From a virus (taxonomy: Duplodnaviria > Heunggongvirae > Uroviricota > Caudoviricetes), in IMG/VR virus record IMGVR_UViG_2645727905_000010, positions 1 to 14,072 of that record: a DNA stretch of 14,072 bases; one strand, written 5' to 3'. Positions within the stretch are counted from its first letter, which is position 1. Each line of letters begins with the position of its first letter. Below are positions 1 through 14,072 of the stretch, piece after piece. Position numbers and translations under genes: made by a program. The notes beneath the pieces were generated by a model, which ran no database searches, was not told where the DNA came from, and saw only the letters and a program-made list of their open reading frames with translations.

Positions 1-30
1 ACACCCACTCTATTTAAATACCGTCTTTTT

Positions 31-80
31 GTCACTGTGTGTCACTGGTTGTCACTCTCCGTCACGGTATGTCACCACAA
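31..80. repeat. Five direct copies of GTCAC at exactly 10-bp spacing (starts 31, 41, 51, 61, 71), immediately 3-prime of the last minus-strand ORF
   Basis: Seen directly: tGTCACtgtg tGTCACtggt tGTCACtctc cGTCACggta tGTCACcaca. Helical phasing would put all copies on one DNA face. Confidence 0.8.
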
Positions 81-81
81 G

Positions 82-375
82 TTAACGTCGTAACCGCTCC
101 GGCTTCTTCCAGTGGTAAGTAATTTTTTCTTTCTCCTGGTACATCTCCACGCGGCGACGATATGACAACAACTCCAGAACTCTGGTGCGTATATTGCGTA
201 TATCCACGCCGTTAAGCTCGATACCGTCACGGCGCATCACCTCAGCCACCACACGCGCGTAATTTTCGGCTATCACGCTGTCCGGCTGCGTGGCCTCCTG
301 TTTGCCTGCTTCCTGGCTGATTCCGGTAACGCGACGGATTATTTTTAGTAGTTCGGTTTCGCTCATTCTCGTCAT
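82..375 (-). CDS. Hypothetical 97-aa protein, translationally coupled to the large terminase (ATGA overlap at 372-375)
   Basis: ORF with ATG at 375 overlapping the terL stop at 372-374. Basic C-terminus. No family recognised by eye. Confidence 0.55.
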   Translation of the reverse strand: MTRMSETELLKIIRRVTGISQEAGKQEATQPDSVIAENYARVVAEVMRRDGIELNGVDIRNIRTRVLELLSYRRRVEMYQEKEKITYHWKKPERLRR

Positions 376-2033
376 ACCCCATCAAACGCCGCAAGCCGCT
401 CTTTGTGGCTGTCGCTTATATCAAATGCAAATTTCTCATGTTCTGCCTGGAATGTGCCAAACGCCATCAGAGCCGCAACGCTCGGGTCTATCTTGTTGGA
501 TGATTTTTTCTTGTTCGGCTTGATATTGGCGTTCGCGTCACTCTGCATCACAACATTACTCATTGACCAGGCCAGCACCGGATCGCCACGATGCACAATC
601 ACCTTCCGGTTAACAAAAACTTCGAACGATTTCGCCGCCGGACTGAAACGAAGGTATGTTTGCGGGAACGGCTCCACCTCAAATCCTGCCCCCTGTAGCT
701 GCGTCCTCAGGTGCGTGGCGTTCCATGTATCGAAGCCCACCAGCCTGATATTGAAATTCTCTGCATCCGCCATGATGTCATCACGGATACGGTCATAATC
801 AATGCAGTCACCCGGTGTTGTGCGTATCCAGCCCGCCTTTACCCACTGGCGATAGATGGCGCGGTTTTTATTGGCGGGGTTCTGTAGCTGAAATTCAGGC
901 AGATAGTGACGGGAAACCAGCATAATCTTTTTACCGACCGGAAAGGCATAGCACACGCTGGAAATATCGCTGGTTGATGATAAGTCCAGCCCCGCGTAGC
1001 ACTCCTGCCCGTATAAATCCGCCTCCGCGAACGTTCCGGCGCACTCCGCCCATGCACCGTTACCCATCCACGGCGTAGCCCCCTGACACCAGATATTGAA
1101 TCGCTTGGTGAGCATTTCCACCCACTGCGACGGAATACCCCGCGCTTTCTGGATGGTTGAGGCCAGTTTTTCACGATCGACGGAAACATCGATATTGGGA
1201 TTCGCCTTTATCCACATCGCCGGATCGTCAACCTCGCTTTCATCATCCAGCTCGTAAATCAGCACGAACATGGATTCGTTCACCTCTTCACCATCCAGTA
1301 TCTGGCAGCAATAGTCATAGTGTTGTTTACAGGCTGAAACAACGTTGCTCCCCGATGTGGTGATGGCAAATAACAGCCCCTCCGGACGCGCCCCCATTCC
1401 CAGTTCAAGCGCGGAATAAACCCCGTTGTCAGGGTGCAGGTGATATTCATCCACAATGGCAAGACTCGGGTTTGTACCTTCAATGGTTGCCGCTTTTGCT
1501 GCCAGTGGCTTTAACAGGCTGTTGGTTTTCGGGTGTATCACCTTGTGTGCCTGAATATTTACCCGCTTTCGTAACGGTCGGGATAAAAGGCACATCTGAC
1601 GCGCATCATCAAACACGATCCGCGCCTGATCACGACTCACGGCGGCGGTGTAAATATCCTGCTGCCCGTTTTCCATAACCAGAAACCAGTTAGCCAGGAT
1701 AGCGGCGACCGTGGATTTGGCATTTTTTCGCGGCACTTCAATGAATGCGCTGGTGTATTTGCGCCGTCCGGTGGCCTTAACCTTAAAGCCCAGGATGCAC
1801 GCAAAGGCGAACTGCTGCCACGGCTCCAGCTCAATGGGGCTACCGCGCATTGCGCCTTTTACGTGCGGACACACCCTGGAAAAGGCAATAAACCGCTCCA
1901 CGACCTCCGGATCGAACGTGTAAAGGGGGTTTTCAAGGTCAGAAAAATACCGTTTAACGGCCTGTTTCAGTCGTTTACAGGCCGTAATTTTGCCGTTTTT
2001 TACGCCTTCTGCGTACTCATGCCAGGCGGTCAA
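372..2033 (-). CDS. terL: Terminase large subunit
   Basis: 553-aa translation has terminase-large character: N-terminal ATPase region and a C-terminal acidic nuclease region (IVDEYH, FDTWN). The first codon at 2033 is TTG, preceded by GAGGA 5 nt upstream. The first in-frame ATG is 61 codons in and would remove conserved N-terminal sequence. Overlaps terS 3-prime end by 17 nt. Confidence 0.92.
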   Translation of the reverse strand: MTAWHEYAEGVKNGKITACKRLKQAVKRYFSDLENPLYTFDPEVVERFIAFSRVCPHVKGAMRGSPIELEPWQQFAFACILGFKVKATGRRKYTSAFIEVPRKNAKSTVAAILANWFLVMENGQQDIYTAAVSRDQARIVFDDARQMCLLSRPLRKRVNIQAHKVIHPKTNSLLKPLAAKAATIEGTNPSLAIVDEYHLHPDNGVYSALELGMGARPEGLLFAITTSGSNVVSACKQHYDYCCQILDGEEVNESMFVLIYELDDESEVDDPAMWIKANPNIDVSVDREKLASTIQKARGIPSQWVEMLTKRFNIWCQGATPWMGNGAWAECAGTFAEADLYGQECYAGLDLSSTSDISSVCYAFPVGKKIMLVSRHYLPEFQLQNPANKNRAIYRQWVKAGWIRTTPGDCIDYDRIRDDIMADAENFNIRLVGFDTWNATHLRTQLQGAGFEVEPFPQTYLRFSPAAKSFEVFVNRKVIVHRGDPVLAWSMSNVVMQSDANANIKPNKKKSSNKIDPSVAALMAFGTFQAEHEKFAFDISDSHKERLAAFDGV

Positions 2034-2373
2034 GCTCGTCCTCTTCCTCTGTTTCCGGTGGATTTCTGCGGCGACTTACCGGGTCAAAACCCAGCAAAGA
2101 AGCCATTTTGATCATTATTCTTTCAGCGTCAGCCTTTGCGCTCAGGGCGGGGTTTCTGCTCTCGCTGCCCTGACTGTTAACAATGCTGAACCCGCGCGTG
2201 GCAAGGTCTTCGACGGCTTTGCGGTATATGGAGTAGTTAACGCAATACAGCTCCAGATTGCTCCAGTCGGCGGGGGTAAGGTCTTCCCGTCCGGAAAGCT
2301 GGCGCGATTTTTCCTTCCACTGCCTGACCGCGATTTCATCCAGGTAAGCGGGGGCTTTTGGTGGTCTTGCCAT
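2017..2373 (-). CDS. terS: Terminase small subunit (P27-like), about 118 aa
   Basis: Translation from MARPPKAPAYLDEIAVRQW resembles P27-family small terminases in size and sequence style. ATG at 2371-2373. The longer ORF to 2514 adds 47 residues with no recognisable similarity, so the start is uncertain. Confidence 0.72.
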   Translation of the reverse strand: MARPPKAPAYLDEIAVRQWKEKSRQLSGREDLTPADWSNLELYCVNYSIYRKAVEDLATRGFSIVNSQGSESRNPALSAKADAERIMIKMASLLGFDPVSRRRNPPETEEEDELDRLA

Positions 2374-2661
2374 GTTCTTTTTTCGCCCAATTATTTTCAA
2401 AAAAATTCCCGTGCACAAAAATTTGAGGAGGCGGTCGGTGTCCGGCAGGGACGGTTTCGTCCTGAAAACCACCCCCACCCCCTCTGACGGCCTCACCAGC
2501 GATTGCGAAAACATTCCATGACCTCGCGGTCACGGTCGGTTAATCGCTTCGCTGTGGTGCGTTCTGTGCGCCCTGTCCTGTTGGCTTTGTGCCCTGTCTC
2601 CTGTGTCTTCCATAAGTCACGCTGCCTTATCAGTCCACGTATCAGCCTGGTTTGCTCCTGT
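2374..2661. other. Candidate cos / packaging-initiation region between the HNH endonuclease and terS
   Basis: 288-bp gap with no convincing ORF. In HK97-like cos phages, as I recall, cos lies between the HNH gene and terS. Contains an imperfect inverted repeat (cagggacg gttt cgtcctg), GC-rich tracts and direct repeats gtgcgccctgtcctg / gtgccctgtctcctg. Confidence 0.3.
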
Positions 2662-3102
2662 TCAGTCATCATCGCCATACATCCAGTCGTTACGGTGTGC
2701 TGCCCGTTCTTCCTGCTCGCGATACATGCCCGCCTTACGGTTCGCTTTCGTGGCTGGATCTTCCCGTGTCGTCTTACGGTTGTGGCACGTCTGGCACAAT
2801 GCCTGGTGGTTCCACTCAGGCCAGAAGAGAACATCACCGCCGCCATTGATGGGGATGATGTGATCCACCACAAGAGCTGGCGTATAAATCCCCTTAGCCA
2901 GACAACGCACGCATAACGGGTTTTTGCTCAGGTACAGGGCGCGGTATTTGTCCCACTGTCGGGAATACCCGCGCGCGCGGCGGTGTCCCCGTCTGGCATC
3001 CTCTGCACGCCATACAGCCCGTCTGTGCTCTTCACACTTGCCGGACTTCACGCGCTTATTACAGCCCGGCTCAGTGCATCGCCTTAATGGTTGCCACGGC
3101 AT
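2662..3102 (-). CDS. HNH endonuclease (packaging-associated)
   Basis: 146-aa translation with N-terminal Cys pairs (CTEPGC, C..C) and the HNH motif region DHIIPINGGGD ... NHQALCQTCHNRKT. ATG at 3100-3102 overlaps the stop of the upstream connector gene by 1 nt. Confidence 0.9.
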   Translation of the reverse strand: MPWQPLRRCTEPGCNKRVKSGKCEEHRRAVWRAEDARRGHRRARGYSRQWDKYRALYLSKNPLCVRCLAKGIYTPALVVDHIIPINGGGDVLFWPEWNHQALCQTCHNRKTTREDPATKANRKAGMYREQEERAAHRNDWMYGDDD

Positions 3103-3404
3103 CAGTACACCCCCACATCACGATAAACCGACCAGAGCGCAGAAATAGCCATAGGCAGTTCAGACTGCTCCACTGGTGAAACTGCTTCCCTGTTCTCGTA
3201 CAGGAAAGCGATGTACATCAGGCAACCAACACGCATTGCCGGGGTAAATTCCAGCCCGTCTTCAAAACGTTTCCCGATATGCTTCTGGCAGGCTTCCAGC
3301 GCCGCATCGGTATACATTTTCAGAAGTTCGCCTTCACCGGATAAATCATCATCAAGTCGAAGATGTGCCCTGACTTCATCAGGTGTAATTCTGGCTTCAC
3401 TCAT
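3102..3404 (-). CDS. Head-tail connector / adaptor protein (gp6-like)
   Basis: Translation from MSEARITPDEVRAHLRLDDD...EACQKHIGKRFE matches the characteristic N-terminus of gp6-like head-tail connector proteins. ATG at 3404 with GGGAG upstream. Overlaps the portal 3-prime end by 8 nt. Confidence 0.7.
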   Translation of the reverse strand: MSEARITPDEVRAHLRLDDDLSGEGELLKMYTDAALEACQKHIGKRFEDGLEFTPAMRVGCLMYIAFLYENREAVSPVEQSELPMAISALWSVYRDVGVY

Positions 3405-4611
3405 CTTTTCTCCCTTTAATTTCCACAGTCTGTTTCCATGCCTGGCTGAACTCATCACCACCTTCACGCGGCGGCATACCCTCGCGTTCGCGAGCTTCGT
3501 TCTGATTCATGATCCCGCTCTTAATCCCTTTCTCATACGTGGCATAACGTTCGGTGGGTGTGGCGCGCAGTAAATCGGCTGAATCAAACTCAACCAGATA
3601 ACGGGTACCAGGTACGGGAGAAGTCACCAGCAAAGCGGCCTTGATTTGCTGTTCGAAGTTCGCCAGCCACGGGCGCATTGTCATGGTCAGAAATGCGCGG
3701 CTCGCCTCACTGAAATTGCTGTAGGTGCTGTTGCTGTATTCCTGAAGAAAAATCGGCGACACGTTGAACATCCTGGCGATGTCTTCAATGGAGAAGCGAC
3801 GGGAGGCCAGCCATTCCGCATCCTGGTTACTCATCCCCAGCTGCCTGTAATCCATGCCCCCTTCAAGGATTGGCGTTTTTCCGGCATTTTTCGCCCCCTT
3901 GTAGCGTTCCAGTGCGTCTAATGCCTGTTTACCTTTCACGCCGTCCAGCCATTCACCTGACGTGATAATCCCTGCCGCCATCATGCCATCTTTCATAATG
4001 CTGGCTCCGTGACGCTGTTGAGCAAGGCCAAGCCCCAGCGCCTCACGGCAAATCGTGACGGGGGAACGCCCCAGAAAGCCATTATCCGAGGCATAGCGGA
4101 GATGCAGAACTTCTTCCTGTAAATACGTGCGCACCGTTCCTGTACAGGGTTCGGTGATGGTATAGCGGTATTTGTGTGTGCCTGTGCGTTCCGGTACAAC
4201 ACACCCCGGCGCATAAGGATGAAGTGATTTTGGCTGCCCGTCCCGCCCCCACTCAATAACCGCATAGGCGTTACCGTTCAGCAGGCAGTGACGCATCATT
4301 GTGCGTTTAAACTGGTAAGGTGTCAGGCACGAATTAGGCTGCTCATTCAGCAGAATATCTACCGGGTGACTGTCCAGCCATTCCCGCGCCTCTCTGCCCT
4401 TGTCATTACGTACCAGATACAGGTAACACGGCATCGTGGCCACCGCCTCAGCGATGACAGAAACCGCGTTCATCACAGCAGGCAATGATTCAGCCGTCCC
4501 GGCAGAAACATATTCTCCGGATCCGGTATTTGGTACACCAGACAACGCCAGAAAATCATCAATGGACAGGTTACGCAGATCGCTTTTTTTACGACTAAAA
4601 GGCCACCACAT
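3397..4611 (-). CDS. Portal protein (HK97 family)
   Basis: About 400-aa translation with portal-like features and an acidic C-terminus. Start chosen at ATG 4611 (MWWPF...), directly after the protease stop. The ORF could extend to 4701. Confidence 0.88.
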   Translation of the reverse strand: MWWPFSRKKSDLRNLSIDDFLALSGVPNTGSGEYVSAGTAESLPAVMNAVSVIAEAVATMPCYLYLVRNDKGREAREWLDSHPVDILLNEQPNSCLTPYQFKRTMMRHCLLNGNAYAVIEWGRDGQPKSLHPYAPGCVVPERTGTHKYRYTITEPCTGTVRTYLQEEVLHLRYASDNGFLGRSPVTICREALGLGLAQQRHGASIMKDGMMAAGIITSGEWLDGVKGKQALDALERYKGAKNAGKTPILEGGMDYRQLGMSNQDAEWLASRRFSIEDIARMFNVSPIFLQEYSNSTYSNFSEASRAFLTMTMRPWLANFEQQIKAALLVTSPVPGTRYLVEFDSADLLRATPTERYATYEKGIKSGIMNQNEAREREGMPPREGGDEFSQAWKQTVEIKGRKDE

Positions 4612-4612
4612 A

Positions 4613-5173
4613 TCACAACCCCGCCAGTTCAGCCCAGCGATGACGATTATTTCCTGCCGGGCGTAATTCAGGGTACTGTGCAAACAACGAACGGTGGGCA
4701 ATCTCCACGCCGGATTCGGGATAAGCAGGCATCGATGTTATCGTGATTTCACGGAGTTCTGCGGCGGTTACAGTACGCAGATACGGTTTTTGCGCGATAT
4801 TCCACTCCTCGCATAATGCGCGAAAGCCAAAGCTCATTCCTGTAATATCGCCACGTTCCACCAGCGTAAGCACATCTTTTCCAAGCTGGGTATTTGGCGG
4901 TGTCAGTTCAAAACGTAGCCCGGTGTTATCCTCAGTCAGTACCAGTGAGCCGGATTTGGTACGCCCCAGCAGTCGGGTATAGTCATGCTCATACAGACAG
5001 CGCACATCATTACCCGTCGCCAGATAGTCAGCAAAAGCCCCCGGCGTGAACTGTTCGCGAAACTCGTCCCAGATAATTTCTGAAAGGCTGTTCCAGCGAA
5101 CGGCATAACCCACCAGTTTTTTATCGCTGGCGGTCAGTTCAGATGTACGGATTTCAAAATCGGTGTTTTTCAT
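4613..5173 (-). CDS. Prohead maturation protease (HK97 family)
   Basis: Translation from MKNTDFEIR contains the HK97-protease-like core (LYEHD...LGR...L.LTED..GLRFE...G.DVLTLVERGDITGMSFGF). ATG at 5173 with GGAG upstream. Confidence 0.88.
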   Translation of the reverse strand: MKNTDFEIRTSELTASDKKLVGYAVRWNSLSEIIWDEFREQFTPGAFADYLATGNDVRCLYEHDYTRLLGRTKSGSLVLTEDNTGLRFELTPPNTQLGKDVLTLVERGDITGMSFGFRALCEEWNIAQKPYLRTVTAAELREITITSMPAYPESGVEIAHRSLFAQYPELRPAGNNRHRWAELAGL

Positions 5174-5191
5174 CGGTGTACTCCATAAAGC

Positions 5192-5214
5192 TGAAAAAGG
5201 AGGCCGAAGCCCCC
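5192..5214 (-). terminator. Putative intrinsic terminator/attenuator between capsid and protease genes (minus strand)
   Basis: Minus-strand RNA would read GGGGGC-UUCG-GCCUCC (6-bp stem including one G-U pair, UUCG tetraloop) followed by UUUUUCAGCUUUAU. Sits 8 nt downstream of the capsid stop. Confidence 0.5.
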
Positions 5215-5222
5215 TTTGCTCA

Positions 5223-6368
5223 TTACTTGCCAGCCTGAATTTCCAGAATCTTGATGGCGTTCGAATCCACCACACCACCGCCCAGATATTTCTGGGTATA
5301 GATGTTAATGAATCCAGGCTCGCTGAAATCCGGACGGGTACGCGTACCGGTTTTATGGTCAACGATGAAATAACCGCGCTTAAAGTCACCGACTGCAATC
5401 ACACCGTCCGGCATAAATTCCAGATATTCAACCGGAAGCCCCAGCAGAGAATCAGGATCACCAGCCTGTAAACGATCGCGCCAGATGTAATCACCAGTGG
5501 CATTTTTCAGTTTTTGTGCGGAGGCGGCTGTATTTGAGTTCATCACCCATACAGCTTTTTTGCGGTACTTATTGCGCAGCGTAAATTTCAGGTCAATCAG
5601 CATATCGGCGCTGAGACTGCCAGTCACTTTTTTCGTCTGGAGCGTACCGAAAGGACGGGTTTTGTCATTATCCGTAGTGCGCGGGAAAGTCAGGAAACCT
5701 TTGGCTTTTTTCTCGCCATCACCGGAAACCAGATCCGTTTCTTCGGTATCAACGAAAGTGTCGCCAATTTCAGAAGATAACCAGCCCATAATATCGACTT
5801 CGGAAAAATCGATAATTTCCTGAGTGGTTTTCGGGTAAGCGTAGATCGGATACAGGCGGATACTGACTTCATTCAGTTTTGGGGTTGCCGTCTGGTTACG
5901 TGCCGCACCTTCTTCGCCGTGTCCCACGACCGCGCCCCCGGCAGAAACCAGTTGCTTAAATTCATTACTGTGAATGGTTTTAACAGTACAGATTTTACGC
6001 ATCACCGACTCATCAGAAAGCTGACGCATAATTTCTCTGTTCAGTTCCGGGATAACCGTATAACCACCATCAGCCGGAACACTGCCGGACAGGTTGCGGG
6101 TTTCCCCGGTCAGAATGTAAGAGCGTAGCTCATTTTTGGTGATTTTATCTTCGACGGGAACACCAGGCTGGTTACGTTCTTCATCAGCCACAGACTCGAG
6201 GCGGGAAATTTCTGTGTCGAGGGAATCGGCTTTTGCACGCAGTTCATCAAACTGTTTGCCTTCGTCATCGTTCAGGCTGCGGTTTTCACTGTCGGCTTTT
6301 TCCAGCAGGGATCGCATCTGGTTTTTCAGGACGGTTTTTTGCTGGCGGAGTTCGATTAATTTCTTCAT
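5223..6368 (-). CDS. Major capsid protein (HK97 fold) with N-terminal scaffold-like coiled-coil domain
   Basis: 381-aa translation with charged, heptad-like N-terminal region of about 100 aa and a C-terminal region typical of HK97-family capsid proteins. ATG at 6368. Confidence 0.9.
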   Translation of the reverse strand: MKKLIELRQQKTVLKNQMRSLLEKADSENRSLNDDEGKQFDELRAKADSLDTEISRLESVADEERNQPGVPVEDKITKNELRSYILTGETRNLSGSVPADGGYTVIPELNREIMRQLSDESVMRKICTVKTIHSNEFKQLVSAGGAVVGHGEEGAARNQTATPKLNEVSIRLYPIYAYPKTTQEIIDFSEVDIMGWLSSEIGDTFVDTEETDLVSGDGEKKAKGFLTFPRTTDNDKTRPFGTLQTKKVTGSLSADMLIDLKFTLRNKYRKKAVWVMNSNTAASAQKLKNATGDYIWRDRLQAGDPDSLLGLPVEYLEFMPDGVIAVGDFKRGYFIVDHKTGTRTRPDFSEPGFINIYTQKYLGGGVVDSNAIKILEIQAGK

Positions 6369-6438
6369 GAAGGTTTTCTCGCATTGGTTAAGATTCAGGA
6401 CGTGAAACCAACACGGGGGGAGCGCCGCCCGACACTCT

Positions 6439-6513
6439 CGGCATCTCGCAGATCAACCCGGCATCGCGCAGGGGGTCAGGCGGCATTGTGGCGGCTCACG
6501 TCTGAGTGCCACA
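6439..6513. promoter_or_regulatory. Candidate regulatory sites upstream of the capsid operon: direct repeats CGGCATC(N)CGCAG at 6439 and 6459, partial third at 6481, plus dyad TGTGGC-N15-GCCACA (6487-6513)
   Basis: Seen directly in sequence. Located 70-145 bp upstream of the capsid ATG (6368) on the transcribed side. Confidence 0.3.
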
Positions 6514-6562
6514 CGCCAACATATACATAAAAATCAGTATGTAAACATCAACCAGAATCACC

Positions 6563-6590
6563 GAACAACCTGGAACAACCACGAACAAAT
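6563..6590. repeat. Three 10-bp-phased copies of GAACAAC(C) (starts 6563, 6573, 6583); reverse complement GTTGTTC matches the repeat unit of the int-alpA array
   Basis: ccGAACAACC tgGAACAACC acGAACAAat read directly. Lies between the replication-operon terminator and the capsid gene. Confidence 0.6.
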
Positions 6591-6611
6591 AATTTACAAA
6601 ACCTGAAAAAA

Positions 6612-6632
6612 GGCCCGGAAAAAATCCGGGCC
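6612..6632 (-). terminator. Strong intrinsic terminator ending the replication/ssb/FinO operon (bidirectional hairpin)
   Basis: GGCCCGG-aaaaaat-CCGGGCC perfect 7-bp stem flanked by A-run on plus (T-run for minus-strand RNA) and T-rich tract on the other side. Follows the stop of ORF 6642..6890 within 10 nt. Confidence 0.75.
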
Positions 6633-6641
6633 TTTATCGCT

Positions 6642-6890
6642 TTATTGTTTCACTGGCTCCCGCATTCTGCGTCTTATTTTCCACAAATATTCGATCATCG
6701 CTTCCACCTGCTCACGGTTGGTTGCGAAAATTTCCCCGGTCAGTGAGCTACGCAGAAAATCATGATGATCCACAAAAAATAACGCATCGGAAGAAAGCAA
6801 CCGACGATATTTTTTTGCTGTCGTGGTTTCCAGATCATCAAAACCATGAAGCTTTTTATGTTGCTGAACTTCTTCAAATGTCACTGGCAT
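6642..6890 (-). CDS. Hypothetical 82-aa protein
   Basis: ORF with ATG at 6890 overlapping the FinO-like gene stop by 10 nt (operon context). No family recognised. Confidence 0.5.
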   Translation of the reverse strand: MPVTFEEVQQHKKLHGFDDLETTTAKKYRRLLSSDALFFVDHHDFLRSSLTGEIFATNREQVEAMIEYLWKIRRRMREPVKQ

Positions 6891-7411
6891 GTATCCCCCT
6901 TTGCTGCCCGGCGCTGGCGCTTGTGCTTCTCATTCAGCACCATCAGCCGTGTTTCTGCCTCCTGCTGTTCCTGTGGTGTCACTTCCCCACATGGCTGGCC
7001 TTTCAGATCGTAACGTGCGCCACCAGCTATCAGGGCGCGGTAATAGCGCGGAGACTGCGCATAGGATGCCAGCGTCGCACGTAATACCCCCGGCCCGAAT
7101 GCCAGCCCCCTGACGGCGATATCCTGCATCAGGTCGTCGAATATCCCCACCTTAAGCGGCTTCGGTGCTTTATGGCTGAATAAGTCAGGCCACATCTCAG
7201 TGAGGCGGTTAACGCGTCGGCGGTTTTTGCGCTGCCTTTTGGTCATATGCTGCCACGGTGTCGCCCCTGTGGGCTTCTGCTGTGCGTTCTGATTGCCGGG
7301 TATCACTTTATGCGCCGATGTGGTTTTATCCTGCTCTTGCGCCGCCTGCGTCGTTTTCTGCGGCGTGCCGTAAATGCCTTTCGGCTTCCGGTTAATGGTC
7401 AGCGTTGTCAT
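6881..7411 (-). CDS. ProQ/FinO-domain RNA-binding protein
   Basis: Core region WPDLFSHKAPKPLKVGIFDDLMQDIAVRGLAFGPGVLRATLASYAQSPRYYRALIAGGARYDLKGQPCGEVTPQEQQEAE resembles the ProQ/FinO fold signature (CF..PLKIGI.DL...S...LR.AL..Y..S.RY......G..R.DL.G...G.V). Basic Lys/Arg tail. Confidence 0.8.
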   Translation of the reverse strand: MTTLTINRKPKGIYGTPQKTTQAAQEQDKTTSAHKVIPGNQNAQQKPTGATPWQHMTKRQRKNRRRVNRLTEMWPDLFSHKAPKPLKVGIFDDLMQDIAVRGLAFGPGVLRATLASYAQSPRYYRALIAGGARYDLKGQPCGEVTPQEQQEAETRLMVLNEKHKRQRRAAKGDTCQ

Positions 7412-7447
7412 GCCTTCCCCTGTAATTACTCTGTTCGCTGTTGTGAA

Positions 7448-7873
7448 TTAAAACGGTATGTTATCCCCGTACGGGTCATCGTGCTGGCTTGTCTGTTGTT
7501 TTGCCCTGTTCAGTGCGTCAGTGGCCTGGCCCTGTTGACCTTTTTTGCCGCCCGGTCGCGCCGTTCGCGCACTGATTACGCTGTCTGCAATAACCTGCCA
7601 GCCCTGCCGCGTTTCCCCGTTCTGGCCTGTCCACTGGCTCACCTGCATGTTACCCGCCACGCTCACCAGTTCGCCTTTGTGGTGTTTTGCCAGTGCGTCG
7701 GCCTGTCTGCCAAACGCCAGGACAGATAACCACATCGTCGCCGTTCCGTCATCTGCCTGGCTGCACGGCAGGGGAACCGCCATACTCGCCATCGCCATTT
7801 GTGTCCCTTTGCTGGTGGTCTTTAACTGCGGGTCAGCCACCAGCCGCCCGTAAGCCGCTATCTGTGCTGTCAT
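7448..7873 (-). CDS. ssb: Single-stranded DNA-binding protein
   Basis: 141-aa translation with OB-fold-like core aligning by eye to E. coli SSB (IAAYGRLVADPQL / WLSVLAFGRQADALAKH / QGWQVIADSV), Gly/Gln-rich linker and C-terminal acidic tip ...DDPYGDNIPF (SSB tip motif D-I-P-F). Confidence 0.85.
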   Translation of the reverse strand: MTAQIAAYGRLVADPQLKTTSKGTQMAMASMAVPLPCSQADDGTATMWLSVLAFGRQADALAKHHKGELVSVAGNMQVSQWTGQNGETRQGWQVIADSVISARTARPGGKKGQQGQATDALNRAKQQTSQHDDPYGDNIPF

Positions 7874-7936
7874 GCTGTCTGTTCTCCGGTTTTAACGTTG
7901 ATTGTTACGCTTGTTTACACCCTTACGGTGAAATTC

Positions 7937-8060
7937 TGCGGGTTATAATCGCACTTTTGCGGGTTATAACTGCCGTTTTGCGGGTTACGTGCGGGTTATT
8001 GATTTCCTTTTTATTCATACAGTTAATGCACTTACACACAGGATAACCCGCATAACCCGC
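7937..8060. repeat. Putative origin of replication: four direct iterons TGCGGGTTA(T/C) at 7937, 7958, 7979, 7990, an AT-rich spacer, then two inverted copies ATAACCCGC at 8043 and 8052
   Basis: Seen directly. Located immediately 3-prime of the replication gene (stop at 8084), the usual ori position in PICI/P4-type elements. Confidence 0.75.
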
Positions 8061-8083
8061 AACTTTTTACATCACACAGGGGG

Positions 8084-10204
8084 TTAATCTTCTGCCTCAG
8101 GCTGGAACATCAGCACGTAAAAAACATGCTGCTTCCCCCCAATTTTGCTGAGCGCCTTTTTCTTGTAACGGCGGTCGTTCCCCTTTTCCAGCATCCCCGC
8201 CGCATCAAGCGCTCTTGCAAAATGCGACGGGTTAAATCCCTGTGCGATCTCACCTTCAAACACATGCGGGAACGTGTAAAAACGGAACTCGTCATCTTCG
8301 TTTCTGATACTCCCCTTTCTGTATCCGGCAAGCTCTTTAATCGGTAAATCACGCTCGTCGGTGTTGGGCCACGGAAGGTATCTGCTGAATCCGAACGACG
8401 CTAAAAAAGCCTCTGCCTGTTCAACCATCTGTTTAAACTCCCTGTTACCCGTGCCGAATTCCTTCACCCAGGCATAAAAATTATGCTGTATGGCATCGCG
8501 GCATTCCTGCTCATCCCAGCCAGTAACATGACCGGAAAGCACAAGCGCGGCCTCCAGTATGGCAAAACGCTCACCCACGCGGTGGACCTGCTCGCCGTAG
8601 CTCTCCGGTATCAGGTTGCGCCACCGTTCACGGCATGCCCTTACCGTGTCCTTTGCTTCCTGCTGGTGGTTTGCCAGCCATTTAACCCATTCACGACCCG
8701 CCGCCCCGTGATTTTCTGTCCAGGCATCCTTTAACGCGTCTGCGTGTGCCTTTCCGGTGCTGTATTCGTGAAATTGTGTGGCTTTTTCCATTGGCACGTT
8801 AAGCAGGCGGACAAGCTGCCCCGCCTTGACTTTTATCCCTTCCGTTTTGAGGAATGTTTCAACGTCCATTTCTCCGGTACTGATTGCCACCGTGCGCCAG
8901 TGTTTGATCTCCCTGTTGCCGCCGTCCTTTGCCCCCTGTAATTTCCCGGAACCGTTAAACAGCGTATAGGCTGACGTGGACACCTCCCGCGCGTTTCCGG
9001 CCTGACCTATTTCATCCAGGGGTAACAGCCCGTCATTATGTGCTTCGGCCTCGTTGGCGATACCTAACGCCGTGCCGTACCAGGTCAGCCGTTGTGCGTC
9101 CGGCTCTCCCCATAAACTGGATGCGATGTTCTGTGTGGTGGTTTTCCCTGCCGATGACTGTTCGAAAAGATGTACCCCGAAGCCGTCAGCCCCCACCAGC
9201 CCGATTAATGGTGCGGATAACGATACCGCCACACCCAGCATCATGGACGGATTACCACCAGCCAGCCGCGCCACGGTATCGCGCCAACCCTCCGCCGTTC
9301 CTGCCACGGAATAGCCATTAACAGCAGCCGTTTTTCCGGTAAACAGGACTGGCTTTTCGCAATCACCAATGACCGAACCGTCCGGCATGATGTACGCGCC
9401 AAAATGCCAGCCCGTTGTTGTGCTTAACTGCCATTCCTCATGGCTTCCGCTTAACTGCATCCAGTCAGCCAGGATAGCCCTGTATTTGCCGTTAGTTGTT
9501 ACGTTCAGTCCGTGGTCTTTCAGCAGCCGCCAGCCGTCACGGTCGCCAATGCCACCGCACGGAACCGCCATTGTTATGACTTCATGGTTTGCTAATTTTT
9601 TCCAGCGCATCACGCGGTAATGCTCTTTACCGATTGTCCCCGTTCCCAGTAGTTCAAGCGGGGAACATAACCACGTCTCAGGCCGGATAATTTCGCCTGA
9701 CTGCTTATCCACTTTGGGCGTTACCCAGAAAACACCATCGGCGCGGCTTTCAACGCGTGGCTTTAATTCATCATCACCCTGGCTTTCTGTGATTTTTTTC
9801 TTTAAGGGCAACACCAGACTTTCCCCGCGCTCGTATTCGTCTTTCAGCCGGGCAAGCTGTGGTGTCCAGTCCTCCAGTAAATCGCCGTTCTCGTCACAAA
9901 AACAGGCTTCTTTAACACCAGCCACTGCCAGCAGGGTTTCAATCTGTAGCGCCAGTTTGTCATCCAGTTTTCCGGCACGTCTGACGATGGCGCGTGACCG
10001 ACCCTCATCCACAATACGCAGGTTTTCCAGATTACCCAGGTCACGCCGTCCGAGATAAACAGGTGGTATTTTGTCGCCGCGCTTTCTGGCTTCTCCGCCC
10101 TGCATGTAATGCTCTGCGTGGCTGTATGCGTCATCCCCCGCAAAAATCACTGCATCCTCGCCTTTATCTTTCGGTAACAGTTTTACGTTCGGTGCCAGTT
10201 TCAT
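8084..10204 (-). CDS. Replication initiator: primase/helicase-like protein with P-loop NTPase domain
   Basis: 706-aa ORF. Central P-loop-like motif FEQSSAGKTTTQ and size/architecture typical of satellite and genomic-island primase-helicase (pri-rep) proteins. ATG at 10204 overlaps the upstream gene stop (ATGA). Confidence 0.8.
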   Translation of the reverse strand: MKLAPNVKLLPKDKGEDAVIFAGDDAYSHAEHYMQGGEARKRGDKIPPVYLGRRDLGNLENLRIVDEGRSRAIVRRAGKLDDKLALQIETLLAVAGVKEACFCDENGDLLEDWTPQLARLKDEYERGESLVLPLKKKITESQGDDELKPRVESRADGVFWVTPKVDKQSGEIIRPETWLCSPLELLGTGTIGKEHYRVMRWKKLANHEVITMAVPCGGIGDRDGWRLLKDHGLNVTTNGKYRAILADWMQLSGSHEEWQLSTTTGWHFGAYIMPDGSVIGDCEKPVLFTGKTAAVNGYSVAGTAEGWRDTVARLAGGNPSMMLGVAVSLSAPLIGLVGADGFGVHLFEQSSAGKTTTQNIASSLWGEPDAQRLTWYGTALGIANEAEAHNDGLLPLDEIGQAGNAREVSTSAYTLFNGSGKLQGAKDGGNREIKHWRTVAISTGEMDVETFLKTEGIKVKAGQLVRLLNVPMEKATQFHEYSTGKAHADALKDAWTENHGAAGREWVKWLANHQQEAKDTVRACRERWRNLIPESYGEQVHRVGERFAILEAALVLSGHVTGWDEQECRDAIQHNFYAWVKEFGTGNREFKQMVEQAEAFLASFGFSRYLPWPNTDERDLPIKELAGYRKGSIRNEDDEFRFYTFPHVFEGEIAQGFNPSHFARALDAAGMLEKGNDRRYKKKALSKIGGKQHVFYVLMFQPEAED

Positions 10205-10515
10205 TTTGCCTTTCCCCGTTCACGAATAATTTCACGTACTGCCTTAATGCGTTCCATTCCTGTAACGCGCATGATTCTGTCAATGTCGCTTAAGTTCGCT
10301 GGTGGTGCTTTGCTTACCAGGGTGAACTCCCTTTCAAAGCGCATATGCGACGACACGCAGGGATGCGCATAACCTTCGCGGATATAGGTCACGCGAAAAT
10401 CATCGACGGTTTTAATCGTTATCGTGCTGCCGTATTTATCCCGGAAAATATCGCCGGGGCGGATTTCAGGCCGAGCGGGGCCGCTGGCAGTAAAGCCAGA
10501 ATTTTTCTTTTTCAT
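10201..10515 (-). CDS. Hypothetical 104-aa protein
   Basis: ORF with ATG at 10515 and GGAG upstream. Stop overlaps the replication gene start, consistent with translational coupling. No family recognised. Confidence 0.55.
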   Translation of the reverse strand: MKKKNSGFTASGPARPEIRPGDIFRDKYGSTITIKTVDDFRVTYIREGYAHPCVSSHMRFEREFTLVSKAPPANLSDIDRIMRVTGMERIKAVREIIRERGKAK

Positions 10516-10520
10516 GTTTT

Positions 10521-10739
10521 TTACTCCAGAGGCAGCTTTTTAGCGGCGAGCTCAATATCAGATGTCAGAGAAACCTGTGTATTTGCCAGGTCTAACAACA
10601 AAGAAATAAGAATTTCTTCTCTGCTATCGGATTTATCGGTGCTAAGGCTGTTCATCCACATATTGACGACTTCCCTGATTTTTTTCGCAGAGTGCAGGGC
10701 TTCAAATGCCAGGTCTTCAATATCATGTTTATTTCGCAT
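10521..10739 (-). CDS. Hypothetical 72-aa protein, predicted helical
   Basis: Start chosen at ATG 10739 (MRNKHDIEDL...) with G-rich SD-like tract upstream. The longer form to 10805 would overlap the upstream gene by 77 nt. Confidence 0.45.
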   Translation of the reverse strand: MRNKHDIEDLAFEALHSAKKIREVVNMWMNSLSTDKSDSREEILISLLLDLANTQVSLTSDIELAAKKLPLE

Positions 10740-10941
10740 AATCGCCCCCGCGTAGCTGGTCTGCACTAACACCCGATTTAGTGAGCATTTCAGAAAATCC
10801 CGCAAGAGTGCTGATAAATTCGTTTTCCATTAAACGGCACTGACATTTAACCCGGCCTTTTTCCAGATACACCAGTACGCGCCCCGTATAATCTGACGGC
10901 ACATTCAGCACTACAGGTAAGTGCGATTCATGATTATGCAT
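10729..10941 (-). CDS. Hypothetical 70-aa protein, paralog of the adjacent upstream gene
   Basis: Shares pattern TG..LV....KGRV.C...L with ORF 10934..11143. ATG at 10941 overlaps that ORF's stop by 8 nt. Confidence 0.55.
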   Translation of the reverse strand: MHNHESHLPVVLNVPSDYTGRVLVYLEKGRVKCQCRLMENEFISTLAGFSEMLTKSGVSADQLRGGDYAK

Positions 10942-11143
10942 GTCTCACCCCCTGAATATTCGCATTAATCATTCCGGCACGTTCTGCGAGTTCCTGTAAT
11001 GATTCCCTTGTTGCGACAATGGCTTCATCTGGCAGGTGGTAATTACACACCACGCGACCTTTATCCACATTGACCAGTAGCTGCCCGGTAAATTTCTCAC
11101 GAAACTGAACGCGGTTAAGGTCGGTAAGTGACAGGTTAATCAT
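10934..11143 (-). CDS. Hypothetical 69-aa protein, paralog of 10729..10941
   Basis: ATG at 11143 preceded by AGGGGGA. Conserved block FTGQLLVNVDKGRVVCNYHL aligns to YTGRVLVYLEKGRVKCQCRL of the neighbour. Confidence 0.55.
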   Translation of the reverse strand: MINLSLTDLNRVQFREKFTGQLLVNVDKGRVVCNYHLPDEAIVATRESLQELAERAGMINANIQGVRHA

Positions 11144-11339
11144 GGTGTTCCCCCTGGCGAATACGGGCAGCGAATACCATCACGCAGCCATCAGGAGATT
11201 GCTGACGCGCTTCCTGTTCGCTGGTGGCCTCAATGGTAATCACGCGCGGTTGTGCCGTGCTCAGGGCGATAAAACGCCAGATGTATTTATTCAGGTTGTA
11301 CGAGTCCCGCCCTTGCGGGTGTCTGGTATAATTTCTCAT
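11136..11339 (-). CDS. Hypothetical 67-aa protein, first gene of the leftward operon
   Basis: ATG at 11339 with GAGG 5 nt upstream. This is the plausible 3-prime part of a 370-aa track ORF whose remainder has non-protein-like composition and crosses the plus-strand genes. Confidence 0.45.
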   Translation of the reverse strand: MRNYTRHPQGRDSYNLNKYIWRFIALSTAQPRVITIEATSEQEARQQSPDGCVMVFAARIRQGEHHD

Positions 11340-11415
11340 AGCTGCCTCGATACGCTTTCTATCGTTGGTGGTTAGACGCCCTGCATGTGTGCCACCACTG
11401 CGGGGCGTTGTTGTT

Positions 11416-11511
11416 TGGTGCATCGCACCATTCGGTTTTAACCTATCAATAAGTGAATCGCACTTCAAGCCTTTCTCTGAAATTTTTTTTGTGTATACTG
11501 AATCGCACCAA
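11416..11511. promoter_or_regulatory. Divergent promoter/operator region: perfect palindrome TGGTGC-ATC-GCACCA (11416-11430) plus two further ATCGCAC-containing sites (11456-11467, 11500-11512), the last abutting a TATACT -10-like element (11494-11499)
   Basis: Seen directly. Lies between the divergently oriented 67-aa gene (start 11339) and the RHH gene (start 11530). Confidence 0.5.
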
Positions 11512-11529
11512 CTTAGAGAGGATTCAGTA

Positions 11530-11709
11530 ATGGCAACAGGTTCAACAAATAATAAGTCGCAACAGTTAAATGCCAGATTCCCGCATGATGTTGTTGCAGA
11601 CTTAGAAAAAAATTTAGATGAAGGTGAAAGCAAGGCGCAATTTATAGTTACTGCCGTTAAAGGTGAGATCAAACGCCGCCAGCGCCGCAAGGCCAAAGAG
11701 CAGGAGTAA
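11530..11709 (+). CDS. Ribbon-helix-helix (Arc/CopG-like) DNA-binding protein, 59 aa
   Basis: ATG at 11530 with AGAGGA 7 nt upstream. Translation has RHH-like layout: short N-terminal strand (LNARFPHDVV) followed by two helices (ADLEKNL...; ESKAQFIVTAVKGEIKRRQ) and a basic tail. Confidence 0.6.
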   Translation: MATGSTNNKSQQLNARFPHDVVADLEKNLDEGESKAQFIVTAVKGEIKRRQRRKAKEQE

Positions 11710-11766
11710 CCATCACCAGCGCCGTGGTGTAAGGTATTACGGCGCATTGCTATGCAGGACAACACA

Positions 11767-11940
11767 ATGACCGATAAAGAATTGACCAAAACATTATCAC
11801 CGACACGGAAAAGACGGCGCAGAAAGATAGAGCATGAATCAGAAAGATTCGCGCCATGTGCTTTTGCCCTTGAGCAATTCCTTAAAGAGTACAGGGAAAA
11901 GCGCTCATTGCAGGTATGGCAACGAACTGAACCAGACTGA
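11767..11940 (+). CDS. Hypothetical 57-aa protein with Arg/Lys-rich N-terminal segment
   Basis: ATG at 11767 with AGGA 7 nt upstream; ORF track alternative ATG at 11752 lacks an SD. Followed by an intrinsic terminator. Confidence 0.4.
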   Translation: MTDKELTKTLSPTRKRRRRKIEHESERFAPCAFALEQFLKEYREKRSLQVWQRTEPD

Positions 11941-12005
11941 TTGCATTGCCCACCAGCCGCAAATGTGGCATTGTTGGTGATGCTTTTGTTTTCCCTTGTT
12001 CCCAC

Positions 12006-12042
12006 TGGCGACCCTTTTGCGGTCGCCTTTGTTTTGCTTGTT
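12006..12042 (+). terminator. Intrinsic terminator for the plus-strand two-gene cassette
   Basis: tGGCGACC-cttttgc-GGTCGCCa stem-loop (7-8 bp stem) followed by TTTGTTTTGCTTGTT. Confidence 0.7.
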
Positions 12043-12300
12043 ATCCGGCAATAGTGGCGCTTCACCACACGGTTGATATAATTCCCCTGCACTGATCCAT
12101 TTTTTTCGCAGCAGGTTAATTGTTCAGAAAGACGGTTCCTTATCGGGGCCGCTTTTTTTATGCCTGAAAATACCCGATAACATGGCTTTTTAGTTTCACC
12201 AGGACGAACGAAGCCCCGCCCCTGTTCGGGCGTATATCCAGTATTCATGGTTAGATCTCTGTGTTAGTGGATGGGTGGCGGCGGTGCGCCGCCAGCCTGA

Positions 12301-12504
12301 TTAGTGAACTGCCTCGCGGCTGTCCTTCCATGCCAGAACTTCGGATAAAGACCAGCCAACGGAACGACCGCCGAGTTTACGCCGTGATGGGAATTGTCCA
12401 GTCTTCTCCAGGCGATACCGACATGAGCGGCTCAGGCCTGTAAGTTGCTGACATTCTTTTTCACGTATAAAGCGATCAGCGCTTAACACTATTGCCTCCG
12501 TCAT
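12301..12504 (-). CDS. alpA: AlpA-family transcriptional regulator (phage/island excision-activation regulator)
   Basis: 67-aa translation ...REKECQQLTGLSRSCRYRLEKTGQFPSRRKLGGRSVGWSLSEVLAWK matches the AlpA pattern (...TGLSRSTIYRL...G.FP....LG.RSVGW...E...W). Confidence 0.85.
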   Translation of the reverse strand: MTEAIVLSADRFIREKECQQLTGLSRSCRYRLEKTGQFPSRRKLGGRSVGWSLSEVLAWKDSREAVH

Positions 12505-12695
12505 TTCTCAAAGAGTCATTTGGTGTCTTATTGTGTCGTATTGTTCCCGCTAGAGTGATGAATGGCAAATATTGGTGACGGTCGTTTTACAGATATGGGG
12601 TAATTAGAATAAAAATACTTTTAATTCATTGTGATGTAGTAGCGTAAAATTTTGCTTTTACGCCTTTTTTACATATTTTTAAGAGTGATTCGCCA

Positions 12696-12711
12696 GTGTA
12701 TAAAAAAACAG
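12696..12711. promoter_or_regulatory. LexA-box-like element GTGTATAAAAAAACAG (one mismatch to CTGT-N8-ACAG) in the int-alpA intergenic region
   Basis: Seen directly. Differs at 2 positions from the E. coli umuDC-type box CTGTATATAAAAACAG as I recall it. The mismatch is in the normally conserved CTG. Confidence 0.3.
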
Positions 12712-12770
12712 TATACATATAAAAATCAAATGGTTATGAATGAGTTTGATTTTTAATCCGCTTGTCCCAT

Positions 12771-12820
12771 TTTGTTCCTTGTTGTTCGTCGTTGTGTCTC
12801 GTTGTTCCACGTTGTGTCCG
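12771..12820. repeat. Five 10-bp-phased repeats (T/C)GTTGT(T/G)(T/C)C between the integrase stop and alpA
   Basis: tttgttcctt gttgttcgtc gttgtgtctc gttgttccac gttgtgtccg read directly at starts 12771, 12781, 12791, 12801, 12811. Confidence 0.75.
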
Positions 12821-12842
12821 TTCTGAAAAATCACGAAAAAAA

Positions 12843-14072
12843 TTATATTTCTCTGGCTATTGGCAGTGTGGTTACGTTTTCGTGAGTACCCGCCAGTATC
12901 TCTAACCGCTCTGTCCACATGTCCAGCGCATTACGTTTCGCATCGAGATAACGGGAGTGGTTATAGACTCGCTGCATCCCTGGCATCTGGTGAGCGGTGA
13001 GTTGTTCGACAATATGCGGATCCACGCCTAAATCGTTCAGCATCGTGGTAAACGTGCGCCGTATATCGTGTAGTGACCAGTGCGGATGGTTTAATTTTTT
13101 GTGCGTGAATCTGCCGTATTGCGACACGCTGGCTTCCTGTTTCAGTTCCCCGAGTAATAGTCCTGTGTGTCGGTTCTGCTCCACCAGCCGTGTGACGAAC
13201 GGTAAAATGCTTTCCGGTATTGGCCTGAATATGGCGACCTTCGTTTTGCTGTGCTCCTTCGGTACTGTCCAGAGCATTTCCTTAAAATCCCACTCCCTGA
13301 TCTCCGACAGCCTCAGTTCTCCGGTTCGGCAACCAAACACAATCAGGAGGCGGATTAGTGCGCTGTAGTAGGGCGGGAATATTTTTTTATCCAGCGCCTG
13401 TAATAATTCGCCCAGTTCTTTGTTACTAAGCACGCGTTCGCTTATGCCTGGTTTTTTACCAACGTCCACCACGTTGAGATCATCCAGAGCGTTACTGACG
13501 ACATAGCGGCGTTTACGACAGAATTTAAGCGCCTGTTTGCACGCCTGCATCATGTGACCAGACGTTACGGGGGATTTTTTGCGTATCCGGTCAAAACAGG
13601 CCAGCCAGTGACGTAATTCGCATTTATCCAGTGGCATGTTACCGATGTGCTGTATGACGTGATTATTCAGGCGACTTTTCAGGCATACATAATCGACACG
13701 GTTTTCCTTTACGTGCGTTTCCAGCCAGTAACTGATCGCATCGCCAACCGTTACGGGTTTTAACGCTTCCTGCACAGTGTAGTTCAGTTCATGACGTGGG
13801 TTTTTCCCTTCTGCCAGCCATGCACGACACTTTGCGGCTTTTTCCCTGGCTGCTTTAAGGCTCAGATCGGGATAGTTTCCCAGCTTCAGGCGTTCCGGTG
13901 TGGTATCCCTTCCCGTTCCAGCCCTGTAGGTGAAGTACCAGGTCAATTTACCTGATGTTAAATATTTCACGCTCAGATTACCGCCATCGCTATAGAACGT
14001 ATTTTTCTCCGCTGGCTTACCATAAAGTTTTCTTAACAATGTATCGCTCAGTTTGTTAAGCGCTCTGCTCAC
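12843..14072 (-). CDS. int: Tyrosine integrase (P4/CP4-57-like), truncated by the window edge at its 5-prime end
   Basis: C-terminal catalytic region with HDIRRTF (H-x-x-R), LTAHQ and RVYNHSRY (Tyr nucleophile). N-terminal region ...YSDGGNLSVKYL...GKLTWYFTYR... typical of P4-family integrases. The ORF is open to the window end and the first translated codon is GTG, so the true start lies beyond 14072. Confidence 0.93.
   Translation of the reverse strand: MSRALNKLSDTLLRKLYGKPAEKNTFYSDGGNLSVKYLTSGKLTWYFTYRAGTGRDTTPERLKLGNYPDLSLKAAREKAAKCRAWLAEGKNPRHELNYTVQEALKPVTVGDAISYWLETHVKENRVDYVCLKSRLNNHVIQHIGNMPLDKCELRHWLACFDRIRKKSPVTSGHMMQACKQALKFCRKRRYVVSNALDDLNVVDVGKKPGISERVLSNKELGELLQALDKKIFPPYYSALIRLLIVFGCRTGELRLSEIREWDFKEMLWTVPKEHSKTKVAIFRPIPESILPFVTRLVEQNRHTGLLLGELKQEASVSQYGRFTHKKLNHPHWSLHDIRRTFTTMLNDLGVDPHIVEQLTAHQMPGMQRVYNHSRYLDAKRNALDMWTERLEILAGTHENVTTLPIAREI

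Follow-up and report, generated by a model that had tools for sequence, protein, structure and literature searches.

Phased GTCAC repeats at the end of Escherichia coli phage-inducible chromosomal islands: a probable protein-binding array and its likeness to phage origin iterons

The subject of this analysis is an array of five GTCAC repeats, located near the left end of a 14,072-nucleotide stretch of viral DNA (Caudoviricetes; positions 1 to 14,072 of the IMG/VR record IMGVR_UViG_2645727905_000010). This stretch, referred to here as the window, is a capsid-forming phage-inducible chromosomal island (PICI) of Escherichia coli. The array is probably a selected and portable protein-binding element. 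Judged by its sequence, its closest natural analogue is the group of origin iterons found in the gene of the phrog_3729 "replisome organizer", a replication initiator of E. coli phages. It may tentatively be regarded as a capture or decoy site for a DNA-binding protein that acts in trans and is provided by a helper phage, most specifically this initiator.

The PICIs and the capsid-forming PICIs move virulence and resistance genes among the enterobacteria, and the recognition of their helpers is only partly known. The array is a discrete and easily mutated element of 45 bp, in an end region that also contains cos sites and a duplicated module of replication repeats. If it binds a helper protein, it would offer a handle on helper specificity, on the timing of satellite replication, or on phage interference, and it could serve engineered satellites as a portable module. 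If inert, it would still mark a recombination-prone end module that is useful for the typing of islands. No description of such an array was found in the open-access papers searched.

Structure of the array

On the plus strand, the cores occupy positions 31-35, 41-45, 51-55, 61-65, and 71-75, at an exact period of 10 bp. The order of the elements is ACCGTCTTTTT GTCAC TGTGT GTCAC TGGTT GTCAC TCTCC GTCAC GGTAT GTCAC CACAAGTTAACG, with no two of the four spacers alike. The GTCAC pentamer itself is not enriched in the window (31 occurrences, against an expected 24.6), so the signal of the array lies in its phasing. The three-copy phased pattern has matches within the array only, and nowhere else in the window, and, by a rough analytic estimate, five phased copies would be expected ~2.5e-11 times in 14 kb when both strands are counted. 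The exact periodicity of the five copies had been regarded as non-random in the initial annotation, which was made from the sequence alone, and this is confirmed both by the regular core starts, from 31 to 71, and by shuffling, given that none of 200 dinucleotide-preserving shuffles produced any three-copy phased match.

Tandem Repeats Finder assigns the array a period of 10 and 4.6 copies, with matches of only 72%, which indicates a series of conserved motifs separated by divergent spacers, rather than a recent or simple tandem duplication. A minisatellite would be formed by near-identical whole units, spacers included, whereas all the spacers of the array differ. A scan of the genome and viral contigs with the bare pattern was too loose, as many of its matches are unrelated minisatellites, and the unrelated matches found elsewhere are mostly perfect 10-bp repeats, unlike the array.

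The initial annotation correctly placed the array at the end of the packaging operon. The final gene of the minus strand encodes a 97-aa protein, and the array begins 9 bp after its stop codon, downstream of the genes of the small (TerS) and large (TerL) terminase subunits. A 99.8% identical copy of the island (locus L001) is inserted in the yifB gene of a bacterial chromosome and has ~650 bp more island DNA to the left of the window, so the left boundary of the island, which the initial annotation had left to be determined, lies beyond the window. It was also stated that no annotated feature explains the array, and this holds only in part. In some genomes, RefSeq does place a 111-aa plus-strand "hypothetical protein" there (WP_235777884.1; L001 5750-6085), which covers window positions 1-85 and passes through both the array and a repeat module to the left of the window. 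This coding sequence is probably spurious, as a repeat in coding DNA could not have a period of 10 bp.

A 12-nt inverted repeat with one mismatch, which may be due to chance, pairs positions 59-70 (array unit 4, CCGTCACGGTAT) with positions 221-232 of the 97-aa gene (ATACCGTCACGG), 150 nt apart. The possibility of a promoter, in which the minus-strand GTGACA would represent a -35 hexamer, was considered and discarded, as a matching -10 is not conserved in the relatives of the window.

Distribution and conservation

The related loci were collected through the array pattern, the 97-aa protein, and megablast hits. The 75-bp array region has matches in 207 of 5426 complete E. coli genomes (~4%), all of them chromosomal, and no match in 50,697 phage records. 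Arrays with 3-5 copies are found in at least four types of PICI, often with unrelated flanks, and the islands that carry them span at least six integration sites. The hosts include two lineages of capsid-forming PICIs, PICIs with lambda-type E/D capsid genes and a Nu1-family TerS without TerL, islands with a ClpP-capsid fusion gene, and one island in which the last gene belongs to the PerC family.

Positions 20-66 of the window form a 47-bp unit that is 97.9% identical across lineages in which the TerL DNA and the neighboring genes are ~85% identical, and outside of which the DNA is non-homologous. Relatives that lack the array either lack the whole unit or retain its left flank, as in the case of loci L306 and L309, which keep the flank up to and including AAACCGTCTTT and lose exactly the array. 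In the copy-number variants (3, 4, or 5 copies), whole 10-bp units are missing and the phase is kept. The orientation of the array relative to the 97-aa gene is the same in every array-bearing locus that encodes this gene.

Cores 1-4 are invariant across all the array variants found, while spacer 1 has at least five forms (TGTGT, GGTGT, GGCGT, ATCGT, and GTCGT) and spacer 4 at least six. Spacers 2 and 3 (TGGTT and TCTCC) are nearly constant too. In one set of variants, 5 of the 15 positions in spacers 1-3 are variable, in comparison with 0 of 20 in cores 1-4 (hypergeometric ~0.009, by our own calculation), a contrast that is suggestive rather than clean, because the sample was found partly with patterns that require GTCAC, a bias which the megablast-derived set reduces, but does not remove. 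The initial annotation had placed every site on one face of the helix, as in a cluster of sites for a protein, and this is supported by the invariant cores, the variation of the spacers, and the shifts in copy number by whole 10-bp units.

The array is often missing from islands that are otherwise identical, with neighboring genes at 99-100% identity, a pattern that the initial annotation had set against a binding role. Its presence is independent of TerS/TerL, the Nu1-type TerS, the type of capsid, the type of replication protein, the identity of the 97-aa protein, and the integrase. A scan of all the clusters of open reading frames (ORFs) against the presence of the array recovered no ORFs other than those that mark a lineage or coincide in part with the array. 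As no ORF cluster of the islands tracks the array, its binding protein, if any, would be either universal to the islands or supplied in trans.

Likeness to the origin iterons of phages

A scan of viral contigs for four phased copies (GTCAC-N5 x4) recovered 120 loci, 57 of which encode a homologue of the N-domain of one and the same initiator, at identities of 93% to 26%. This initiator is phrog_3729, which is named "phage replisome organizer" in RefSeq, and is present in 2078 of the 5426 E. coli genomes (38%). In all but one of the 57 loci, a phased GTCAC run is found 339-436 nt downstream of the point where the N-domain match starts (the values for two partial matches, L111 and L066, being 292 and 289), and the closer relatives have a second GTCAC run near +128. 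These phage arrays contain 3-11 copies at a period of 9-11 bp, which is almost always 10-11 bp.

In the phages Evi and vB_EcoS-689R5 (loci L342 and L343), the main run has GTCAC at 2895, 2905, 2915, 2926, and 2936 of the loci (2895-2940), with spacings of 10, 10, 11, and 10, and is followed by GATAAAGATACAGATAAAG. A second phased run is found at 2635-2666, ~260 bp from the main one. Both lie inside the initiator gene, only the main run being followed by AT-rich DNA, and they are the sole phased GTCAC runs in the 36.7-kb record of 689R5. By analogy, this layout is the lambda-style design, in which the gene of the initiator contains the origin.

Among phages that were selected solely through the similarity of the protein, Pseudomonas phi1 and Aeromonas pAEv1818 have these same GTCAC arrays, and the more distant homologues of the initiator have four copies of either GCAACGC or CGAACGC, at the same place and with the same period. 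The repeats thus co-vary with the initiator, as iterons should, since the distant homologues switch the motif and keep the geometry.

The array shares with the phrog_3729 iterons the GTCAC pentamer, the direct orientation of the repeats, the 10-11 bp period, a copy number of 4-6, and the divergent spacers. With five direct cores at exactly 10 bp, it falls within the class defined by at least four such cores at a period of 10-11 bp. The iterons differ from the array in reading GTCACG(A/C), in being inside the initiator gene, and in having AT-rich DNA on their 3' side, whereas the array lies between genes, on an element that encodes no cognate initiator.

Phage 689R5 has packaging genes of the HK97 type, an HNH gene, and a lambda-like tail. 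The gap that contains cos, between its HNH and terS genes, aligns over ~115 nt with the terminal cos found ~75 bp from the array in the PICIs of the L040 type. Four of the seven E. coli phages with the phrog_3729 initiator are among the 14 phage records that match this L040-type terminal cos. The flank of the second array lineage has only short, weak matches in the phage records, to lysis and roi regions.

Repeats of a similar kind were observed in a 14-kb, high-coverage, plasmid-like contig of Scandinavium hiltneri (L148 1270-1900), in an origin-like region downstream of an unannotated 561-aa gene. In this region, (T)GGTCAC repeats in both orientations surround an AT-rich stretch of ~100 bp, together with a second family of repeats, GCCACT, and the context of the motif differs from that of the array.

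A possible capture site for a helper-phage initiator

With its cores on one face of the helix, the array would allow a small DNA-binding domain to load cooperatively, head to tail, in the manner of replication iterons. We infer that the array is bound by some protein and, far more tentatively, that this protein is the phage initiator and that binding has the consequences described below. The candidate binder would be supplied in trans, most likely by a helper or co-resident lambdoid phage, and when the helper enters lytic growth, its phrog_3729 initiator would be captured on the array of the satellite. The outcome might be either (a) extra helper-driven initiation or unwinding beside the terminal replication and packaging sites of the island, or (b) titration of the initiator, by which the replication of the helper would be damped. 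That the satellite carries a true mimic of the origin repeats of its helper, on which the initiator is caught, and is then either made to fire or unwind the DNA or is simply soaked up, is a rather doubtful proposition. If it were true, the array would be a cis-acting means by which a satellite senses or exploits the replication protein of its helper, located beside a cos mimic in a dedicated "helper-interface" region at the end of the island.

A precedent for the decoy is provided by the lambda iterons ITN3-4, which, when borne on a plasmid together with oop, block rep-lambda phages, with no need for the AT-rich part of the origin (PMC3349717). In that system, as in the proposal made here, a phage can be opposed in trans by initiator repeats that are not part of a functional origin. 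It differs from the array in being a laboratory construct that depends on oop transcription, and in having palindromic iterons of 18 bp.

A number of points weigh against the phage initiator as the binder. Position +5 is occupied by T, T, T, G, and C in the array, whereas 82% of 229 phage units have G there and 3% have T, and the units of the island do not follow the extended consensus GTCACG(A/C). When scored on the flanks only, they reach -4.97, against -4.18 for random GTCAC sites of the window and +3.06 for the phage iterons. The array lies outside any initiator gene, the only AT-rich DNA nearby being a short T-tract and TATTTAAATA, on the 5' (opposite) side, and neither the window (best E-value 0.1) nor any of the related island loci yielded a homologue of the N-domain of the initiator. 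The island already has an initiator and an origin of its own. The terminal cos of the window-type islands is phiP27-like, and phiP27 is not among the phages that have the phrog_3729 initiator. As 38% of the genomes carry this initiator, its co-occurrence with the array is little informative. The GTCAC-based selection of part of the loci behind the conservation counts is a further point of this kind, and the pentamer alone does not identify the binder, because the arm sites of the lambda integrase also contain GTCACT.

In NZ_AP045771.1, the initiator gene (893628-894111) and the array of an island (909855-909899) are ~16 kb apart, which suggests the integration of this satellite into, or beside, a prophage of the type proposed as helper.

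Alternative explanations

The array may have no function at present, and be a hitch-hiking remnant, of an old origin or attachment arm, for example, which was spread by a recombining end module and is conserved through recent descent. This is unlikely, even though the end region is a rampant mosaic of short cassettes, the array is missing from so many near-identical islands, and spacers 2 and 3 are nearly constant, as in a young shared module. The edges of the module coincide exactly with the ends of the array, the losses of units preserve the phase, the variable positions are found in the spacers rather than in the cores, and the array persists in several island types and at many integration sites.

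A role as an accessory element of packaging is also unlikely. A bound or stiff array upstream of the terminal cos might slow the motor, or position the terminase or HNH protein, and so favor cleavage at the cos of the satellite. Such a role would be consistent with the L040-type islands, where the array is on the side at which the motor arrives, with the window-type islands, where the phiP27-like cos lies ~430 bp further left, and with the HK97 model, in which a protein roadblock at cos acts in termination (PMC10359639). There are, however, at least 15 distinct array-bearing flanks without a terminal cos core, and several islands with a terminal cos and no array, while the helper phages have nothing comparable between HNH and cos. 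The initial annotation named TerS, the integrase, and the 97-aa protein as candidate binders, and proposed to see whether the array co-varies with terS or int. Its presence tracks neither the type of TerS nor the integrase. TerS as the binder is contradicted by the distribution of the array, which is present in 20 of the 37 islands with a P27-family TerS and TerL, 12 of the 29 with a Nu1-family TerS and no TerL, and 4 of the 8 with neither. The HK97-type TerS binds a single site of 15 bp (+15 to +29), which lies on the opposite side of cos (bioRxiv 10.1101/2023.07.17.549218). Like this site and the R sites of the lambda cosB, the array of some PICIs is a cis element near cos, but the R sites, of 16 bp each, surround an IHF site in mixed orientations (PMC9026076), and the HK97 site is on the first-packaged side, whereas the array is found on the side of the terminal cos that is packaged last, at a distance of 75-430 bp, or in an island with no terminal cos.

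The adjacent 97-aa protein is a distinctly improbable binder. It has no assigned function, and the array follows its stop codon by 9 bp in the L040-type islands, as in those of the window type, but in other lineages the two are 66-410 bp apart, with cassettes between them, and one array adjoins the unrelated PerC-family gene instead. Copies of the protein that are 100% identical occur with and without the array (L263 vs. L246), and the gene is present in both capsid-forming and classical PICIs, regardless of the array. A structure model from the single sequence is an all-helical bundle of moderate confidence (pLDDT 71), with no DNA-binding or otherwise informative match in the PDB, and the sequence has no match in Pfam or NCBIfam. 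The identification of this protein as Rpp, with the array as a cosB for Rpp and TerS, was rejected, given that Rpp has 139-154 aa and is encoded downstream of cos (PMC9026076). A likeness to PerC was rejected as well, as none was found.

Arm-type sites of the integrase, or sites of the excisionase (AlpA), are a very improbable explanation. The integrase of the island has an arm-binding domain (PF13356), the orientation of the array is constant relative to the att-proximal end, and, in lambda, the annotated Int sites P1 and P2 and the P'1 sequence, which are strong arm sites, contain GTCACT. The lambda P' sites are, in addition, adjacent direct repeats approximately one helical turn apart. The island integrase, however, is P4-like, and both of its att arms carry two copies of ACTACACC and phased GAACAA repeats instead, at ~150 bp or less from the junction. 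Arm sites would be expected on both arms, at a fixed short distance, and wherever the arms are found, whereas the array is absent from the integrase-proximal arm and from many islands with the same arms, and its distance from the junction ranges from roughly 250 to 650 bp (our estimate from the sequences) in islands that occupy numerous integration sites.

A host protein that reads direct repeats one turn apart would tie the end of the island to the physiology of the host, and is improbable, too. The candidates would be a response regulator of the OmpR/PhoB type (the CpxR boxes are GTAAA-N5-GTAAA) or another nucleoid or regulatory protein. The absence of a binder among the variable modules of the islands would fit a host protein equally well, the geometry is like that of the tandem sites of response regulators, and GTCAC is a half-site of the matS of MatP. 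In contrast, matS is an inverted repeat with a 3-bp spacer, the array is confined to these islands, and, to our knowledge, no E. coli factor has a GTCAC-N5 direct-repeat consensus.

There is only a slight chance that the array acts at the RNA level, as an element (GUGAC x5) of the late operon's 3' untranslated region to which a protein such as the ProQ/FinO-like one of the island binds. The array does lie between a stop codon and a terminator-like hairpin (L001 6006..5992, equivalent to window 6..-9, mostly to the left of the window and just downstream of the array, with a weak stem), and the island encodes a ProQ-family protein. Folding of the array region gave no significant structure (z = -0.42), seven related loci have no Rfam match, and several loci that carry the array, among them L040, a near-complete island, yielded no ProQ homologue. 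In other lineages, the gene and the array are set apart by hairpin cassettes, and a 10-nt period is the helical repeat of DNA. The least probable reading, and one that is largely refuted, is that of a second set of sites for the replication protein of the island itself, like the crr of P4. The terminal region of the window-type islands does hold replication-type elements next to the array, but the iteron of the island, GCGGGTTA, found beside the primase gene and in the terminal module, is unrelated to GTCAC, and the array occurs with at least three unrelated replication proteins.

Genomic context of the array

The window has an integrase, an AlpA-like regulator, a primase/replication module, its own capsid, protease, portal, and connector genes, and an hnh-terS-terL block, all on the minus strand (Table 1). 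This order agrees with the layout of the capsid-forming PICIs of the Proteobacteria (bioRxiv 10.1101/2022.09.08.507074).

Table 1. Features of the 14,072-nt window and their coordinates.
Feature	Position	Strand	Remarks
Terminator-like hairpin, right half	1..6	-	GGGTGTTTAATACCC then CCCGTTTTTT on the minus strand; from a consensus scan
Left flank of the array	20..30	+	ACCGTCTTTTT, T-tract abutting the array; moves with the array into otherwise unrelated contexts
GTCAC array	31..75	+	Five cores with divergent 5-bp spacers; GTGAC as read on the gene (minus) strand
97-aa gene	82..375	-	phrog_1561; last of the late operon; stop codon at 82-84
TerL	372-2033	-	
TerS	2017-2373	-	P27-family
HNH	2662-3102	-	
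SSB; ProQ/FinO-like protein; HK97-type capsid, protease, portal, connector	between primase and HNH	-	
DUF927 primase-helicase	8084-10204	-	
370-aa protein	11136-12248	-	Icd-like C-terminus; from domain matches
AlpA-like regulator	12301-12504	-	
Integrase	12843-14072	-	Arm-binding domain PF13356

The likely origin of the island itself is found at 7937-8060, immediately 3' of the primase-helicase gene, where four direct copies of TGCGGGTTAT (7937, 7958, 7979, and 7990) are followed by an AT-rich spacer and two inverted copies of ATAACCCGCA (8043-8060). As this is the usual position of a satellite origin, GCGGGTTA, and not GTCAC, would be the replication repeat of the island, and the repeats beside its replication gene do not match those of the array. 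Leftward of the window, L001 contains, in order, the terminator-like hairpin, a repeat module, a cos-like stretch, and the att-proximal arm. The repeat module (L001 5675-5828, ~200-350 bp to the left of window position 1) consists of three copies of TGCGGGTTA, an AT-rich stretch of ~75 bp, and three copies of TAACCCGC. It is a second copy of the GCGGGTTA module, with three direct and three inverted copies at a spacing of 21-22 bp, and is found in the terminal non-coding region of the window-type islands only. It recalls the crr of P4, and the island family has the layout of the ori/crr of P4, in which the iterons of the alpha protein lie at two distant places, but with GCGGGTTA as the motif, at the origin and in the terminal duplicate. 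The GTCAC array is a separate element, unlike ori/crr, with another motif, and is found with unrelated replication proteins.

The gap between a small ORF after HNH and terS (~2380-2490, minus strand) aligns with the cos region of phiP27 (GGGGGTGGGGGTGG ... CCGACCGCCTCCTCAAATTTTTGTGCACGGG). This gap, which occupies the canonical place of cos between HNH and terS, is probably the cos site of the island itself. The cos-like stretch to the left of the window (L001 5564-5625) has 62 bp and 89% identity to the annotated cos-site region of phiP27. It is much closer to phiP27 and ST64B than the site at ~2380-2490 is (89-92% identity, including the A-tract on the TerS side). On these alignments, the window-type islands may have both a cos site of their own and a second one of a helper type. 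The terminal cos of the L040-type islands matches the phages 689R5 and mEp235 instead, and the cos of lambda has no real similarity to the terminal cos.

The att arms at L001 5389-5460 and L356 1496-1620 share ATGACTACACC-N4-ACTACACC and the phased (G)GAACAA repeats, and the same arms are common to islands inserted at many different chromosomal sites. The ACTACACC and GAACAA repeats are probably the arm-type sites of the integrase and the accessory sites of the excisionase.

A variable string of short cassettes lies between the 97-aa gene and the array or att arm in L002 (3600-4010), L043, L169, L311, and many other loci. The cassette loci have no Rfam match. Each cassette has a small hairpin (e.g., CCTCAAATTGAGG, GCGCAATTTTGCGC, or CCCCCAATGGGGG) and an IHF-like WATCAA-N4-TTR box, and many of them end in GTTACCGCC, which is a repeat of the last codons and stop codon of the 97-aa gene.

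In the 370-aa protein, most of which has no family match, a domain like that of the Icd cell-division inhibitor covers residues 322-365, and a "transcriptional repressor" PHROG covers residues 282-369, that is, the last ~45-90 residues. The non-capsid-forming relatives of the island encode a full-length Nu1-family TerS and capsid genes like E and D of lambda (L040 1184-1768, minus strand). Despite this Nu1-family TerS, the terminal cos of the L040-type islands matches phages of the HK97/P27 type, which use an HNH protein, and this represents an unexpected mix of packaging parts.

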